Source of the DNA: Nitrososphaeria archaeon
GTDB taxonomy: Archaea; Thermoproteota; Nitrososphaeria; JACIWG01
Assembly (NCBI GenBank): GCA_050011875.1
Contig: JBEKIG010000004.1
Coordinates: 65,589-129,588, forward strand
Direction: 5' to 3'
Length of the DNA stretch: 64,000 bases
Shown here one piece after another: positions 40,864 through 48,043 of the stretch (its first letter is position 1; each line of letters opens with the position of its first letter). The notes under the pieces were generated by a model that worked only from the letters and a program-made list of their open reading frames with translations, did no database searches and had not been told where the DNA came from. The translations under genes and the position numbers were made by a program.

Positions 40864-41232
40864 TTAAAAACAGATGACAGCATCTGCTTCAAGCGCTAAA
40901 TCGTTCAAGGTAGCAGCACCTACGATTCCAGCTTCAGAAATGAAGTCTCCACGTGGAATAGTCAGCAGTTGGCAGCTCTGTTCACACACCGTAAGCTTTA
41001 CTCCCGCCTTTATCGCCTGGTCCATTACTTCTTTGAGCGATGGGAAACCGCCTATTTTTATCTTTTCAGCTTCTCCCTTCTTGACTATCGTTACACCCTT
41101 TATTACGAAATAGATTGTCGCCTCTACGTTCATCATTTCTGCAGTGGCCGCTAGAATAAATGGCGCATATGTGCGTTCTGGTGTGTCAACACCGCTTGTT
41201 TGAACATACAGTATCTTTTTTTTCTCAGACAT
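40864..41232 (-). CDS. DsrE/DsrF (YchN)-like sulfur-relay protein
   Basis: DsrE-fold size (122 aa) and conserved-Cys region (CEQSC). Confidence 0.6.
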   Translation of the reverse strand: MSEKKKILYVQTSGVDTPERTYAPFILAATAEMMNVEATIYFVIKGVTIVKKGEAEKIKIGGFPSLKEVMDQAIKAGVKLTVCEQSCQLLTIPRGDFISEAGIVGAATLNDLALEADAVICF

Positions 41233-41256
41233 TTTCTCACCTCCAATTAATACTGT

Positions 41257-41493
41257 TTACTTCACCTTCCTGATTAAAAGCTGAACCCCTTTTCCTGCGG
41301 AATTCACGCCTAACAGCTCCTGTCCTAAATTCTTAACAAGACTTCTTATATCCGATTCCGCCGCCGGGTCATCAGCGAGCACTTCCAATACTTCGCCAAC
41401 CTCCATCTTGTCAAGTTCAATTCGAGTCCTAAACACAGGTTCCGGACAGTAGAAACCTATGCAATCCAATGTTCGGTCTACTTTTTTATTCAA
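41257..41493 (-). CDS. tusA: TusA-like sulfurtransferase
   Basis: LDCIGFYCPEP (CPxP motif); 78 aa. Confidence 0.85.
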   Translation of the reverse strand: MNKKVDRTLDCIGFYCPEPVFRTRIELDKMEVGEVLEVLADDPAAESDIRSLVKNLGQELLGVNSAGKGVQLLIRKVK

Positions 41494-41630
41494 AAAAGAC
41501 TCGACTCATCGATGATCAATTACAGTGTTATATTTATAACTTTTTATTTGAGTGTAATTATATATATGTAAGCATCCGCTCTCTGAAATAATCTAAAGTT
41601 CTAGGTCAAAATGCATTTAGTAGATTTCTT

Positions 41631-42647
41631 CTATTTAATATTCGAAAGTGGAACATTTAGTCCTTCGATTACTATTCTACTGTAAAGGTCATATGCTTTC
41701 TCTTCATTTTCTAATCCTTCAACGATCATTACCCCGCTCTTTAGGATACTTGCTTTAAGATCTGATCCTTTATCGAACGTTATACCTAAATCGGTTTTGA
41801 CTTTGATCTTAAACTTGCTCTTTTCCAAAAGTGAAAGAAGATCATTTATTTTCAAGGTTAGGTTTTTTCTTGGTGTTATCATGAAAACCCGTTTTCTTTT
41901 TCTACCACAGATTTCCGTAACCAGTTGTACTTGAAGAGGTTTCGGCGGGCGTAATGGTCTTGAGCCACATACGGGACAATCCTCTGCCTTTGATATATCG
42001 ATCGCCTGGAATGTCAAAGATCCAACGTCGCAGTAAAATAGTTTGTTCATAAGGTTAGGCGTCTGTCCGAGAATAATCCTTGCAGCCTCTGACACTTCAA
42101 TACTAGCTATAATGTTTATGATCGAAGGTTGGACTCCAACTACGGCACAGGTCGGTAGCATTTGATCCTCTAAGTTTCCTTGAAAACATTCTAGGCAGGC
42201 GGTTTTACCGGGTATTATCGTTGACACGCTTCCGTAGGTTGTAATTGCAGCACCAAAAATGTATGGTACATTATATGCCTGACAAGCCCTGTTTAATGCG
42301 TAGCGTGGAGCTATATGATCCAGGCCATCGACAACAACATCCATATCGCAGACAATGTCTCCAGCGTTTTCTGAGTTCAAGGATAAGGGGAGAGGTTCCA
42401 CCTCTATGTTGGGGTTATACTCGTGCAGCCTTTTCGCTGCGATCTCAACCTTAGGGTAGCCTATGAAGTCTACACCGTAGAGGGGTTGTCTCTGGAGATT
42501 AGAGAGCTCGATAATATCTTGATCGACCAAACGCAGGTGACCTACTCCCATTCCAGCTAGCAGCAGTGCAGCTTGAGAACCAAGTCCTCCAATTCCGACT
42601 ATGCAGACTCTAGCGTTTCTAAGTTTCAATTGCCCATTATAACCCAT
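41631..42647 (-). CDS. E1-like adenylyltransferase (MoeB/ThiF/UbaA family) with a C-terminal ~110-aa extra domain
   Basis: IVGIGGLGS nucleotide-binding motif; CLEC...CPVC zinc site; non-rhodanese C-terminal extension. Confidence 0.8.
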   Translation of the reverse strand: MGYNGQLKLRNARVCIVGIGGLGSQAALLLAGMGVGHLRLVDQDIIELSNLQRQPLYGVDFIGYPKVEIAAKRLHEYNPNIEVEPLPLSLNSENAGDIVCDMDVVVDGLDHIAPRYALNRACQAYNVPYIFGAAITTYGSVSTIIPGKTACLECFQGNLEDQMLPTCAVVGVQPSIINIIASIEVSEAARIILGQTPNLMNKLFYCDVGSLTFQAIDISKAEDCPVCGSRPLRPPKPLQVQLVTEICGRKRKRVFMITPRKNLTLKINDLLSLLEKSKFKIKVKTDLGITFDKGSDLKASILKSGVMIVEGLENEEKAYDLYSRIVIEGLNVPLSNIK

Positions 42648-42847
42648 ATCAGGTAGAACAATTTGACGGGAGTAGAATTCAAGTTCATTTTCTGAAAGCT
42701 TCTTTGCTTTAACCTTAGGCGTTTTCGTTCACCCCTCTAAAACTGTAACTTAGATGACCTTTTTCAAGAAAACCGATGTAAAACCGGTTTAATCGAGGAT
42801 TTCGGTACAGCATTCAAACTTCTTCCTATGCATTAAGGTCATCAACA

Positions 42848-44002
42848 TCAGGCTTTTATTGGCGAAATCTTCCTTAATTTTTTTACAGTTTTGGGCAAAG
42901 CTTCCAGGATGTAGTCCACATCTTCATCTGTCGTGTACCTTCCCAAAGATATTCTTAAGCTTCCGTGGATTTCTTCTGGTTTTAATCCAAGGGCTAGTAG
43001 CACGTGACTCGGTTCCCCTGAGCCTGATGAGCACGCGGAACCTGTGGACGCAGCTATCCCCTCATCGCTAAGAAGCATGATTAGGGATTCACCTTCGATA
43101 AAAGAAAATCTAAAATTGTTTATGTTTGGTAATCTCTTAGTAGGGTGTCCGTTCAGGTAGGTCCTTTCAATTTCTAACACGCCCTTGGTTAGACGATTGC
43201 TCAAAGCTGTCAGCCTCTGCGCTTCTGACACCATCTCCTCCTTTCTAATCTCTACAGCTTTAGCGAACCCCATTATACCCGGGACGTTCTCAGTGCTGGA
43301 CCTTAGACCGAATTCGTGGCCTCCTCCGTGCAGCAAGGGCTCAATTTTTACTCCTTTCTTTATGTAAAGTGCGCCAACCCCCTTCGGCCCATAAATCTTG
43401 TGGGCGTTAACCGTCATAAGGTCTATGTTCATTTCTTTAACGTCTATGGGAATTTTACCGAAGCTTTGAGCTGCGTCGGTGTGGAAGAAGGCGCCATATC
43501 CGTGACATAGCTTTCCAATTTCCTTCAACGGCTGTATGGTACCAATTTCGTTATTGCCATGTATAATGGAAACCAAGGAAACACCATTCTTCAAAGCTTT
43601 TTCAAGTTCCTCCAGATTTAATAGACCGTACTTGTCGACAGGTAGATAAGTTATTTTAAAGCCCTCTTTTTCCAGCCAAATAGCCGTATTTAGAACACTG
43701 TCATGCTCTATGGTAGATATGGCGATGTGCGTTTTACCATTTTCTTTATTGAGAGCAAAGCCTTTTAGGGTCAGGTTATTCGCTTCAGTAGCGCTTCCAG
43801 TAAAGATCAATTCTTCAGGCTCAGCTTTAACCATTCCAGCAACTGTCTTCCTCGCTTCATCAATGGATTTCCTCGCCTCTAACCCGAAGCTGTGAATAGA
43901 TGAAGCATTGCCGTAAATTTCGGTAAAATAAGGTCGCATGGTTTCAAGTACTCTGGGGTCTAAAGGCGTTGTCGCAGCATAGTCGACGTAGATTCTTCTC
44001 AT
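42848..44002 (-). CDS. iscS: Cysteine desulfurase (IscS/NifS class V aminotransferase)
   Basis: YVDYAATTP start, the PLP-Lys region (NAHKIYGPKG) and active-site SSGSACSS. Confidence 0.85.
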   Translation of the reverse strand: MRRIYVDYAATTPLDPRVLETMRPYFTEIYGNASSIHSFGLEARKSIDEARKTVAGMVKAEPEELIFTGSATEANNLTLKGFALNKENGKTHIAISTIEHDSVLNTAIWLEKEGFKITYLPVDKYGLLNLEELEKALKNGVSLVSIIHGNNEIGTIQPLKEIGKLCHGYGAFFHTDAAQSFGKIPIDVKEMNIDLMTVNAHKIYGPKGVGALYIKKGVKIEPLLHGGGHEFGLRSSTENVPGIMGFAKAVEIRKEEMVSEAQRLTALSNRLTKGVLEIERTYLNGHPTKRLPNINNFRFSFIEGESLIMLLSDEGIAASTGSACSSGSGEPSHVLLALGLKPEEIHGSLRISLGRYTTDEDVDYILEALPKTVKKLRKISPIKA

Positions 44003-44051: not shown

Positions 44052-45101
44052 TCACTCTTTCTTTAACCTAGATCGTGTAATATAACCGTTCACTTTGGCG
44101 CCAGCTGGAATCGAGGAAGTTATCCAGGAGTTTCCTCCTATGACAGCATTATCCCCTATGATTGTTTCGCCTCCGAGAATAGTTGCATCGGAATAAATAA
44201 CTACGTTGTTTCCAACTGTAGGATGTCTCTTACGCCCCCTTATGATCTGCCCTTTCTCGTCTTTGGGAAAACTTAGGGCACCTAAGGTTACACCTTGGTA
44301 GATTTTCACATTATCTCCGATCTCCGTAGTTTCTCCTATGACAACGCCTGTTCCATGGTCGATAAAGAAGTTTCTTCCGATCTTTGCTCCGGGGTGAATA
44401 TCGATACCTGTTTGAGAGTGGATATATTCGCTCATTATTCTAGGAATCATCGGAACGCCTCTTATGTAAAGCTCGTGAGTTATCCTGTAGGTTGCGATGG
44501 CAAGAACGCATGGATAACTTAGAATGATCTCGTCGGTGCTCTTAGCAGCAGGATCTCCATCGTAGGCTGCTTGAATGTCTCCACTTAGAAGGGTTCTTAT
44601 TTCAGGAATCTTCTCTAGAAGCTCCTTTACAACAACTTGTGCCCTTCTGTAGCAGACATCTTCAGGGCATTTTTTAATCCTTCGGCAAACGTACTTGAGA
44701 CTTTTCCCTACTTCATTAACGAGACGAAAATAGATCGAGTTTAAAGTGTTGCCTAGAAAGTACCTAACATTGGATTTTGTTACTTTCTTTTTACCCATGT
44801 AGCCAGGGAAAATTGTTGCTAAAAGGTCTTCTAGTACCTCGATGACTACCTGTTTCGATGGAAGATCTTTTCCTTCTAGGCTTTTCATTTCCCCATGGCT
44901 TTTGTAGCTTTCCATAATCTCTTCGACGAGCTTTGGTAAACCTTCCTCGACCCAATTTTCTTCCACTATCTTTTGTTCTTTAATAATCATCTCCAGCATT
45001 TGCTCTGGACTCCATGCGTAAGGCATCTCCTCGTTTCGCTCTTCTTCTTTAAAGCGAGATCGATCTGATGTAGACTTCATTTGCTTTCTCATCTTTATCA
45101 T
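44052..45101 (-). CDS. cysE: Serine O-acetyltransferase (hexapeptide-repeat LbH) with an N-terminal extension
   Basis: Left-handed beta-helix hexapeptide repeats ([14 protein letters not shown]...) plus the SAT N-terminal helical domain. Confidence 0.75.
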
Positions 45102-45249
45102 GAATACAATAGTACAACACTAAGATAGGGGTCTCCTATATCTTGATTATTTTTTGATTTAAGGGGATTAAAGACGTACTTCAAAACATTTACTGCACCT
45201 AAAGTTAAAACTTTTCTCATGACTTTCCTACTCATATTACGGCTGTGTG

Positions 45250-45268
45250 TTTATAACGCCGTTATAAA
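45250..45268. promoter_or_regulatory. Perfect palindrome TTTATAAC-GCC-GTTATAAA, ~150 bp upstream of the cysE start
   Basis: Seen directly in sequence. It shares the ATAAC-N3-GTTAT core with the sites at 46411 and 46804. Confidence 0.45.
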
Positions 45269-45449
45269 TCTTTTGTTTTTAAAACTTCATATAATTCAAA
45301 TAAGTAGTTATTTTTCACTATCTAATTCTCGTCTCTGCCATCTCATCTTTGGAAATTGCATTTTTTTTGCTCGTGATCGATTTAAGTTTTAGCTCAACTT
45401 TAAAAATCTTGGAATAGGGAGTGTGGCGGGATATCTTTCAACAGCGTCC

Positions 45450-46394
45450 TTAGGGTTCGTTCACTTCGGGTTCCTTAAACAGGGTGGTACTCAAATATCG
45501 TTCGCCAGTGTCTGGAAACACAACTATAATGAGCTTACCATCGTTTTCACGTCTCTTCGCTACTTCAAGGGCAGCGTAGCATGCTGCTCCAGATGAGATT
45601 CCAACGAGCAAACCCTCTTCCTTTGCGAGGCGTCTAGCAATGTTGAAGGCGTCATCGTCTCTGACCTGAAAGATTTCATCCACAATATCCCTACGGAAAA
45701 CGTCCGGTACAAAACCCGCTCCTATTCCCTGTATCTTATGGCGACCAGGCTGTCCACCTGAGAGAACAGGTGAGTTTAAGGGTTCAACTGCTATGATTTT
45801 TAGGCTGGGCTTTAACGGTTTGATATATTCGCCTATTCCTGTAACAGTGCCCCCTGTCCCAACTCCGCCAACTACTATGTCTACCTGCCCGTCTGTGTCA
45901 TCCCATATTTCTACTGCAGTTGTTTCCCGATGTATCTTTGGATTAGCGGGGTTCTTGAACTGCTGTGGTATGAATGAGTTTGGTGTGCTTGCTGCGACCT
46001 CTTCAGCCCTTTTGATCGCACCCTTCATCCCCTCAGCCCCAGGCGTGAGAATAAGTTCTGCACCATATGCTTTAAGGAGAGATCTTCGCTCAGCGCTCAT
46101 CGTATCAGGCATTGTCAATATGAGCTTGTAGCCTCTTACAGCCGCAACCATAGCGAGCCCAATACCAGTATTACCGCTGGTAGGTTCGATTATGATCGTA
46201 TCCTTATGGATCAATCCTTGTTTCTCAGCCTCTTGAATCATACTCAAGCATATCCTATCCTTCACACTTCCCCCAGGGTTTCTTGACTCGAGTTTCGCGA
46301 CAATTGTAGCTTTCAAGCCCTCTGTAATTCGGTTCAGTTTGATTAAGGGAGTCATACCGATGGTCTTTAACACATCATCGTAAATTTTTAGCAT
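45450..46394 (-). CDS. cysK: Cysteine synthase / O-acetylserine (or O-phosphoserine) sulfhydrylase, PLP-dependent
   Basis: [24 protein letters not shown]-terminus, PLP-Lys region (SVKDR) and GTGGT loop. I placed the start at the internal ATG (46394), because the track's GTG at 46416-18 lies inside the upstream palindrome. Confidence 0.85.
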
Positions 46395-46410
46395 ACACCT
46401 TAAGTTATGG

Positions 46411-46428
46411 TATAACACTGTTATAAAT
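46411..46428. promoter_or_regulatory. Palindrome TATAAC-ACT-GTTATAAAT, 17-34 bp upstream of the cysK ATG (promoter position)
   Basis: Seen directly in sequence. It overlaps a TATA-like element. Confidence 0.5.
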
Positions 46429-46470
46429 CTTTGTAGATTGTCTTGTTTTTAACCAGTAAATGGGAACTCA

Positions 46471-46791
46471 CTATTTTATTAAGGTAAACACAAGGGTGCA
46501 AATACCACATAGGTCTACTTCTACTTTCTTTGACTTTTTTGCATCAGCTATTTTTCCTGCTTCTGAACCAATAATTTTTATTATTTCCTTATTAGCTAAC
46601 AGTTTTTTAGTCAATTTTCCACCCCTCTTTGAACTAATATATTGACTAACAGCAGCCTGCGTTATTCCAAGTACCTTAGCTGCATGCGATTGGGAGAAAC
46701 CGTGTTCTTCAACAAGTTCCTTTGCGATAAGTCCTCTTATGGTTGGAAGGATGTATTTTGTCGCTCTCTCACATTTCGGCCTGACAACCAT
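46471..46791 (-). CDS. Small HTH DNA-binding transcriptional regulator
   Basis: Predicted helix-turn-helix FSQSHAAKVLGITQAAVSQYIS; 106 aa; lies immediately upstream of cysK. Confidence 0.6.
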   Translation of the reverse strand: MVVRPKCERATKYILPTIRGLIAKELVEEHGFSQSHAAKVLGITQAAVSQYISSKRGGKLTKKLLANKEIIKIIGSEAGKIADAKKSKKVEVDLCGICTLVFTLIK

Positions 46792-46803
46792 TATTTTGAA
46801 TTA

Positions 46804-46820
46804 ACTTAACACTGTTATTA
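46804..46820. promoter_or_regulatory. Palindrome CTTAAC-ACT-GTTATTAA, 13-29 bp upstream of the HTH regulator start
   Basis: Seen directly in sequence. A third copy of the ATAAC-N3-GTTAT-like site. Confidence 0.45.
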
Positions 46821-46954
46821 AAAGTTTGCTTTAAATTCAACACTCAGGTATAATAAAACTTTTGTATAATTTCCATTTCCTCTTTTAAAAGTTGTAAACA
46901 CAAGGCTTTGAATGTTTTTATAGTGAAGTTGCTAGAAAAGTTTAGAAGGTTAAT

Positions 46955-47767: not shown

Positions 47768-47951
47768 GATGGCTCACTAAAAACAGAATAAGATAAATTT
47801 TGACCTTTAGGAGATTTAGCAACTGGAAACGGAATTCATTTAGTTTCTATAGAAATAATATCAATGTTTTTTTCATTATCAGTTTATTTAATTTGTAGTA
47901 AAATTTTTTAAATCAACTGATATTCTATGACCTAAGTAGTGTAAATATATA

Positions 47952-48043
47952 TGGGGCCAGTGGGATTCGAACCCACGCTCACCAGCGATCTGGGCTACAT
48001 GCTCCCCAGGCTGGCATCTTTGACCAAGCTGGACGATGACCCC
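47952..48043 (-). tRNA. tRNA gene (~92 nt) with a probable ~16-nt intron in the anticodon loop; anticodon possibly GGG (Pro), uncertain
   Basis: The reverse complement gives a 7-bp acceptor stem GGGGUCA/UGGCCCC, T-arm GUGGG-UUCGAAU-CCCAC, a 5-nt variable loop, and CCAGC...GCUGG flanking a 23-nt segment that is too long for a plain anticodon loop. No CCA is encoded. Confidence 0.7.

Follow-up and report, generated by a model that had tools for sequence, protein, structure and literature searches.

Does the short inverted repeat ATAAC-N3-GTTAT, which recurs at the promoters of a small sulfur-gene cluster in a Nitrososphaeria archaeon, mark the operators of a dedicated regulon, and if so, which protein reads it? 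The cluster lies in a stretch of 64,000 nucleotides (nt) from contig JBEKIG010000004.1 (assembly GCA_050011875.1, positions 65,589 to 129,588; hereafter the window, whose own numbering is used throughout), and it includes, next to the cysteine-synthesis genes cysK and cysE, a gene for a helix-turn-helix (HTH) protein of 106 amino acids (aa). An earlier reading made from the letters of this DNA alone (the sequence-only reading) had pointed to three copies of the palindrome, upstream of cysE, cysK and the HTH gene, and had proposed that they are the operators of a cysteine/sulfur regulon under the control of that protein. We consider it likely, on the basis of the sequence comparisons laid out below, that the palindromes are operators of the adjacent 106-aa XRE-type HTH protein, which would regulate its own gene and probably acts as a repressor.

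The palindrome and the genes behind it

Re-reading the window recovered all three palindromes. Those at 45250 and 46411 begin exactly where they had been placed, and the third, which had been put at 46804, begins 2 nt higher, at 46806. The claim that the window holds no further copy turned out to be wrong: a fourth copy is found upstream of tusA (Table 1), adjoined by a lone GTTAT half-site at 41536-41540. All four sites fall in the sole sulfur-gene cluster found in the window. The sequence-only reading had further placed two of the sites at about -15 to -35 from their start codons. For cysK and the HTH gene, the centre of the site is 24 nt from the ATG at 46394 and 21 nt from the ATG at 46791, respectively, and the centre of the newly found site is 32 nt from the TTG start of tusA. 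For cysE, in turn, the centre of the 45250-45268 site and the ATG (45101) are 158 nt apart, and a distance of 24 nt separates it from the ATG (45235) of a possible small open reading frame (ORF) that precedes cysE.

An exact search with ATAACNNNGTTAT returned two matches in the window as against 0.06 expected, a number that none of 100 shuffles reached. Once one mismatch is allowed, five matches stand against an expectation of 2.58, and at least as many are found in 10 of 100 shuffles, so that the loose pattern alone is not significant; one of the five, at 44197 within cysE, looks like a chance match. A weight matrix built only from sites that precede the homologous regulator genes of other species, and then run over the window, placed exactly the four sites at the top, with 21.4 bits at 45259, 21.2 at 46418, 15.9 at 46812 and 15.1 at 41525; the fifth-best match in the 64 kilobases (kb) scored only 9.7 bits. 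The best matrix score of shuffled windows had a mean of 13.6 bits and a maximum of 17.5. The sites at 45250 and 46411 stand alone, far past chance, and the third and fourth are credible because of their location and their conservation in a close relative (locus L001) and across species. In L001, the 45250-45268 site is identical, the cysK operator is kept, as is the ATAACACTGT portion of the tusA operator, and the position upstream of the regulator gene is likewise occupied in L001-L003.

We fetched 80 loci around homologues of the HTH protein, 79 of which (744 kb) lie outside the window's own species; their sources include Bathyarchaeia, Hadarchaeota, Aenigmatarchaeota, Nanoarchaeota, Odinarchaeia, Desulfurococcales, Methanobacteriaceae and others. 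In the stretches of 70 nt that precede the homologues, ATAAC-N3-GTTAT recurred time after time. The 79 loci contain 72 copies, compared with about 1 expected and 0-3 in first-order Markov simulations, and the next commonest palindrome of the 5-3-5 form in the same loci, A5-N3-T5, has 18. A site with at most two mismatches is present within 90 nt upstream of the regulator gene in 51 of 76 homologues, as against 6.7% of 85-nt windows drawn at random from these loci, and an exact site in 25 of the 76, as against 1% of random windows. These counts agree with the autoregulation that had been suggested from the site before the HTH gene. The carriers of the site include Bathyarchaeia, Hadarchaeota, Aenigmatarchaeota, Nanoarchaeota, Odinarchaeia and Desulfurococcales, and their sites yield the consensus T-ATAAC-R-N-Y-GTTAT-A, with C at -2 and G at +2 in 90% of the sites and the A/T positions conserved at 84-96%. 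The DNA sequence predicted to be bound by the 106-aa protein is TATAACAGTGTTATA.

These counts bear on the concern, voiced already in the sequence-only reading, that the motif is nothing but a generic, AT-rich archaeal promoter palindrome of the TATA type with no gene-specific regulator. The upstream half-site in the window sites does fuse with TATA-like TTTATAAC or TTTTAATAAC, and the former overlaps the TATA-like sequence at the distance from the start codon expected of such an element; the unremarkable one-mismatch count in the window points in the same direction. However, only four places in 64 kb exceed 10 bits despite dozens of promoters; in the other species the motif outnumbers every other 5-3-5 palindrome, those of A and T alone included, by a factor of four; the invariant C (-2) and G (+2) are foreign to TATA elements; and the motif follows one protein family together with sulfur genes. 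We regard a generic promoter palindrome as hardly credible.

We accord equally little credence to an action at the RNA level, as hairpins or terminators in 5' leaders. Perfect inverted repeats can fold, and the 45250 site lies between two genes of the same strand, 180 nt downstream of cysK. Yet the stems would have just 5-9 AU-rich pairs with a loop of 1-3 nt, and it is the sequence that is conserved rather than the pairing, variation being confined nearly entirely to the central three bases rather than appearing as paired changes in the arms. Moreover, the distance to the start codon is anything between 0 and 70 nt, and the cysE leader has no Rfam match (the search gave only two matches elsewhere, both far below threshold) and folds no better than its shuffles (z = 0.44).

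To define the genes behind the motif, we considered as motif-adjacent any gene starting 8-75 nt from a site, and checked their families with Pfam. No gene neighbours the motif nearly as often as the regulator gene, which accounts for 40 of 117 distinct motif-adjacent proteins. The others cover several branches of sulfur metabolism: first, sulfur mobilization, with cysteine desulfurases of the class-V aminotransferase type (Aminotran_5), SufS and NifU_N (IscU); second, sulfur relay, with ThiF-type E1 proteins, ThiI with or without THUMP, ThiS-like proteins and TusA; third, thiamine synthesis, with Thi4; fourth, cysteine and methionine synthesis, with CysK, O-acetylhomoserine sulfhydrylase (Cys_Met_Meta_PP) and a SepSecS/SepCysS-like protein; and fifth, sulfate reduction, with PAPS reductase (PAPS_reduct) and two kinds of sulfite reductase (NIR_SIR). 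Two of the window's own targets recur in this set, since cysK homologues are preceded by the motif in L043 and L066, and TusA genes in L012 and L021. The enrichment upstream of sulfur genes that the sequence-only reading had called for is seen in the homologue loci: with crude gene calls, a site lies near the start in 32 of the 110 members of the sulfur families, compared with 22 of the 622 remaining genes (odds ratio 11, p = 4e-15). Thus, the proposed sulfur regulon finds support in other archaea, with the palindrome standing upstream of assimilation and relay genes alike, and it appears in a form that is wider than cysteine synthesis and extends over many phyla.

In a few lineages, the motif also precedes genes for NadA, a copper-type P-type ATPase, and HMA or YHS metal-binding proteins. 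The palindromes before the copper-type ATPase and small HMA/YHS genes (L002:9685-9720, L003:8849, L015:2605 and L036:6887) suggest that the sulfur regulon is tied to copper or thiol stress. Separately, two distant genomes (L002:6787-7236 and the L062:7646 region) code for a 150-174-aa protein with a ParB/sulfiredoxin-like DGHHR motif and an exact palindrome upstream; it has no Pfam match at E <= 1e-5 and is a candidate for an unannotated member of the regulon. In many target promoters the palindrome is present in duplicate or triplicate, whereas the window sites are all single. The multiple copies are spaced 13-36 base pairs (bp) apart (L008:2299/2321, L010:5824/5845, L031:5537/5573, L043:6584/6618, L054:1151/1169 and L066:4468/4485/4523), an arrangement that suggests cooperative binding.

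The HTH protein as the predicted binder

The 106-aa protein matches HTH_3 (PF01381) over residues 24-56 with 23.6 bits, a narrow margin over the gathering cut-off of 23; the same model is matched at E <= 0.01 by 84 of 86 relatives. The remainder of the protein is covered by no Pfam or NCBIfam model. A relationship to DUF134/UPF0251 (PF02001; PRK04217) was considered and rejected, with scores of 22.8 bits against a cut-off of 27 and 20.2 against 115, and matches at E <= 0.01 in 6 of the 86 relatives. Two groups of residues stand out. In the recognition helix, T44, Q45, A47, S49 and Y51 are invariant or nearly so in the 86 relatives, a conservation that parallels the unusual conservation of the DNA motif. 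Towards the two ends of the protein, C7, E8, C95 and C98 are invariant among 17 relatives and invariant or nearly so among the 86. The AlphaFold2 (AF2) model (pLDDT 82, pTM 0.78) displays six helices, with C7 beginning the first and C95-x2-C98 the last. A Foldseek search of the PDB with this model gave no match at E <= 0.001 (best E 0.27), and only partial matches of the size of the HTH were returned, such as the DeoR DNA-binding domain over 43 columns, 2a6c at a probability of 0.54 and NsrR (5n08) at E = 1.4. Likewise, a sequence-profile search of the PDB returned only generic HTH matches (52 at E <= 1).

The family is large, with 1302 homologue clusters at 90% identity (E <= 1e-5) and at least 1268 at 50% identity (E <= 1e-10). 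About half of the homologues feature a longer C-terminal tail with an additional C-x2-H-x9-13-C-x2-C, giving 5-6 cysteines after position 95; these long forms include L004-L008, L014, L017, L019, L022, L039, L055, L060, L068 and others. The window protein is a short form, with C95 and C98 only at its C-terminal end. One bathyarchaeial locus (L046) codes for two regulator paralogues (L046:1448 and L046:6025), just one of which is preceded by an exact palindrome. A further homologue, with no palindrome upstream, lies on a contig labelled as bacterial (L063; JAGXKX010000038.1, Candidatus Bipolaricaulota bacterium), which could be a case of horizontal transfer or a binning error.

Is this protein also the one that reads the sites? 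One observation comes from homologues in which the common recognition helix, ITQ[AP]AVSQY, is replaced by LTPAA[IV]TQY (L016, L057, L069, L073 and L040). The operators of their own genes read TTAAC-N3-GTTAA rather than ATAAC-N3-GTTAT, with the copies in L040 read directly from the upstream sequence; this covariation is qualitative and concerns one clade. Alternatively, the palindrome could be a true operator of an unlinked factor, with the HTH gene being merely one more member of the regulon. Some homologues indeed have no site upstream, and the motif stands beside many genes other than the regulator, as would be expected under such an arrangement. However, an unlinked binder is hard to reconcile with the data because the flank of the operator changes together with the recognition helix. 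The regulator gene is also the leading motif neighbour by a wide margin, and helix and operator are both unusually conserved across phyla. We therefore judge an unlinked factor to be highly improbable, and the assignment of control to the adjacent HTH protein, made originally from a single genome, is strengthened by the recurrence of the palindrome upstream of its homologues in many phyla.

From these sequence patterns we infer physical binding, a dimeric stoichiometry, repression rather than activation, and the likely nature of the signal. The 106-aa protein would most likely bind as a dimer, given the two-fold symmetry of the sites and half-site centres about 10 bp apart, or one helical turn. 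In the window, the putative operators overlap or directly follow a TATA-like element, 21-32 nt from the start codons; on account of this position at the TATA element, binding would block TBP/TFB or RNA polymerase and thereby repress. Sites that cover the TATA element or the start are the usual geometry of archaeal repressors. The targets in the window would comprise the regulator's own gene, cysK, the cysE-nifS unit and the tusA-dsrE unit. The conserved C7, Glu8 and C95-x2-C98, all outside the HTH, probably form a sensor, which may be an iron-sulfur (Fe-S) or metal site, or else a thiol/persulfide (disulfide) switch. The repressor would then leave the DNA upon falling sulfur or Fe-S status, or upon attack on its thiols; the copper-export targets of some lineages would fit an attack of Cu(I) on the sensor thiols or cluster.

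Several observations weigh against this picture of an autoregulated repressor with a sulfur regulon. First, the enrichment test is partly circular, as the list of sulfur families was taken from the motif neighbours; the enriched families are nonetheless sulfur enzymes by any independent standard. Second, the third and fourth window sites (15.9 and 15.1 bits) score within the range of shuffled windows (maximum 17.5). Third, 25 of the 76 homologues have no recognizable site upstream, including those of Methanobacteriaceae, Halobacteriota and Archaeoglobales loci. Autoregulation is thus not universal, because some of these site-less homologues (e.g., in Methanobacteriaceae) retain the same recognition helix. 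Fourth, a pattern-first scan of metagenomes with TATAACANTGTTATA gave mostly chance matches in AT-rich DNA, with a regulator or sulfur gene beside the site in 4 of 120 loci (L082 with the regulator, L163 with NifS, L178 with PAPS reductase and the regulator in the locus, and, weakly, L173); it lends the regulon weak support. Fifth, the case for cysteine sensing is one of residue conservation. Sixth, some species have the site ahead of the TATA-like element, at 32-56 nt from the start codon, an arrangement that would also allow activation.

The last point raises the prospect that the protein binds the sites and chiefly activates, or is a dual regulator. About a quarter of the autoregulatory palindromes are of this distant kind, lying upstream of or overlapping the TFB recognition element (BRE)/TATA region, with the TATA-like element downstream of the palindrome, and SurR provides the precedent of an archaeal factor able to do both (PMC12162507). 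Most autoregulatory sites, in contrast, keep a distance of 5-26 nt to the start codon, and an AT-rich, TATA-like element precedes their centre by 16-20 nt. Both in the window and in the majority of species, the site falls between this element and the start codon or over the element itself. We accordingly deem a mainly activating or dual role unlikely, and retain repression by the adjacent HTH protein as the probable mode of action.

The sulfur-gene cluster of the window

The features of the cluster, all of whose genes are on the minus strand, are collected in Table 1.

Table 1. Predicted operators and genes of the sulfur cluster (window positions).
Feature	Position	Strand	Evidence and remarks
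Site TTTATAACGCCGTTATAAA	45250-45268	.	Perfect 9-1-9 palindrome, arms TTTATAACG-C-CGTTATAAA; upstream of the (small ORF)-cysE-nifS unit
Site TATAACACTGTTATA (TATAACA-C-TGTTATA)	46411-46425	.	Perfect 7-1-7 palindrome; upstream of cysK; the longer stretch TATAACACTGTTATAAAT is 46411-46428
Site TTAACACTGTTAT (TTAAC-ACT-GTTAT)	46806-46818	.	One half-site mismatched; upstream of the HTH gene; TTAACACTGTTATTAA is 46806-46821
Fourth site ATAACACTGTAAT (ATAAC-ACT-GTAAT, read on the minus strand)	41519-41531		Upstream of tusA-dsrE
106-aa XRE-type HTH regulator	46471..46791	-	HTH_3 match, invariant columns, AF2 model, helix/operator covariation
cysK (O-acetylserine sulfhydrylase / cysteine synthase A)	45450..46394	-	TIGR01139 476.7 bits (cut-off 350.95); PALP
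Possible 45-codon small ORF	45098..45235	-	Stop overlaps the cysE ATG (ATGA); may be a 5' leader instead
cysE-like serine O-acetyltransferase, long N-terminal extension	44052..45101	-	TIGR01172 171 bits (below cut-off); EpsC-type NF041874 158 bits (above cut-off); Hexapep
NifS/IscS-type cysteine desulfurase	42848..44002	-	TIGR03402 515.7 bits (slightly under the cut-off of 530.75); Aminotran_5 301 bits
ThiF/MoeB-type E1-like adenylyltransferase	41631..42647	-	Pfam/NCBIfam matches
TusA-type sulfurtransferase, CPxP motif	41256..41493	-	TusA 77 bits
DsrE-family sulfur-carrier-like protein	40864..41232	-	DsrE 67 bits; directly downstream of tusA

The nifS gene starts 49 nt downstream of cysE, and the two are probably co-transcribed. 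As for cysE itself, either a transcript from the 45250 site may run through the small ORF or leader, or cysE may have a separate promoter. The small ORF has no Pfam match. In L001, a 1-nt insertion after its first ATG shifts the frame, and a 40-codon frame that starts at the second ATG (45220) remains intact; over this frame, two of the three substitutions between the window and L001 are synonymous.

No recognizable operator of its own was found for thiF in the window. Immediately upstream of its ATG at 42647 (42648-42720, minus strand), conserved N-terminal residues of ThiF (…SENELEFYSRQIVLPD) are coded in frame before the first ATG, GTG or TTG, and there is no canonical start between these residues and the preceding TGA; the cause may be a start codon of a non-canonical kind, an error in the sequencing or truncation of the gene. 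The interval between nifS and thiF is rearranged in L001. Outside the cluster, a tRNA-Pro(GGG) gene at 47952-48043 (minus strand) accounts for a partial, sub-threshold Rfam 'tmRNA' match at 47949-48000, and its length of 92 nt suggests an intron.

Relation to known regulators and implications

The closest parallel in theme is SurR of the Thermococcales, an autoregulated sulfur-response regulator with a CxxC motif that binds GTTn3AAC and whose DNA binding is switched by cysteine chemistry (PMC12162507). The two have in common an archaeal host, the link to sulfur, a CxxC, autoregulation and a short palindrome with a 3-nt spacer. Nevertheless, they differ in several respects. SurR has about 219-230 aa and two winged HTH domains of the ArsR type, as opposed to the 106-aa XRE-type HTH protein of the window. 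The CxxC of SurR sits in its N-terminal DNA-binding domain, whereas C95/C98 lie outside the HTH and are accompanied by an N-terminal cysteine. The SurR motif is GTTn3AAC(n5GTT), of which the half-sites are everted here (AAC-n3-GTT). Finally, SurR controls genes for hydrogenase and for S0 reduction in energy metabolism, whereas the present motif precedes genes for assimilation and sulfur relay. No SurR chain is among the 52 PDB sequence matches at E <= 1, and the Pfam architecture is HTH_3 rather than SurR-like.

Bacterial IscR, CymR (both of the Rrf2 family) and SufR resemble the predicted system in being autoregulated repressors with palindromic operators before genes for cysteine desulfurases, Fe-S assembly or CysK. 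IscR and SufR sense via an Fe-S cluster held by three cysteines and one other ligand. The three invariant cysteines and the invariant glutamate of the 106-aa family could conceivably make up a comparable set, although cluster binding here is conjectural. Unlike in those systems, the operator sequence is unrelated to theirs, and the Pfam matches of the protein contain no Rrf2 or DeoR-type domain, nor is Rrf2 among the 25 families listed of the 46 matched by the 86 relatives.

By its domain, the protein belongs with the Cro/C1 (XRE) repressors, with which it shares the HTH_3 domain, a small helical build, a palindromic operator with half-sites one turn apart and an autoregulated gene. It is set apart from them by the cysteine-bearing N- and C-terminal helices beyond the reach of the Pfam models and, in many members, by the tail with the extra C-x2-H...C-x2-C. 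Further, in contrast to the phage-type Cro/C1 repressors, the family is chromosomal, archaeal and sulfur-linked, and is not tied to mobile elements. The archaeal thiamine regulon of the repressor ThiR offers a precedent of another sort, as it was likewise rebuilt from a conserved palindrome and overlaps in its targets (Thi4 and thiamine-related sulfur steps). ThiR carries a ligand domain derived from ThiN, and its specificity is for thiamine; no ThiN-type domain is present here, and the targets extend well past thiamine.

In the literature covered, from which subscription journals are largely missing, we found no description of this regulator family or motif (COG2522 included), and the sole match to AACNNNGTT is a Desulfovibrio Zur site. 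An operator-repressor regulon is a known kind of system, and this regulator family, its operator and a sulfur regulon that spans phyla appear to be undescribed. At the widest, the data raise the prospect of a near pan-archaeal master regulon for sulfur assimilation and trafficking, run by a minimal XRE-type protein with a Cys3(Glu) sensor site; for this broad proposal we see the chances as evenly balanced. Its scope would take in cysteine synthesis and the desulfurases, the relay of ThiI, ThiF, TusA and ThiS, Thi4, the reduction of sulfite and PAPS and, in some lineages, the export of copper.

To our knowledge, regulation outside the Thermococcales is largely uncharted for archaeal sulfur assimilation, for cysteine synthesis and for the relay of sulfur to Fe-S clusters, thiamine and tRNA. 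The present analysis supplies for it a candidate regulator family, counted above in its clusters at 50% identity, with a sharp 15-bp operator and a predicted regulon found repeatedly, from Bathyarchaeia and Hadarchaeota through DPANN and Asgard lineages. The motif can serve as a tag with which to annotate the sulfur genes of uncultured archaea, and the 106-aa protein is a small subject for the biochemistry of a possibly new cysteine-based sensor. The system also presents a case of operator conservation across a very large evolutionary distance. If the proposal is true, archaea would possess a functional counterpart of the bacterial IscR, SufR and CymR that uses another fold and an operator conserved from phylum to phylum.

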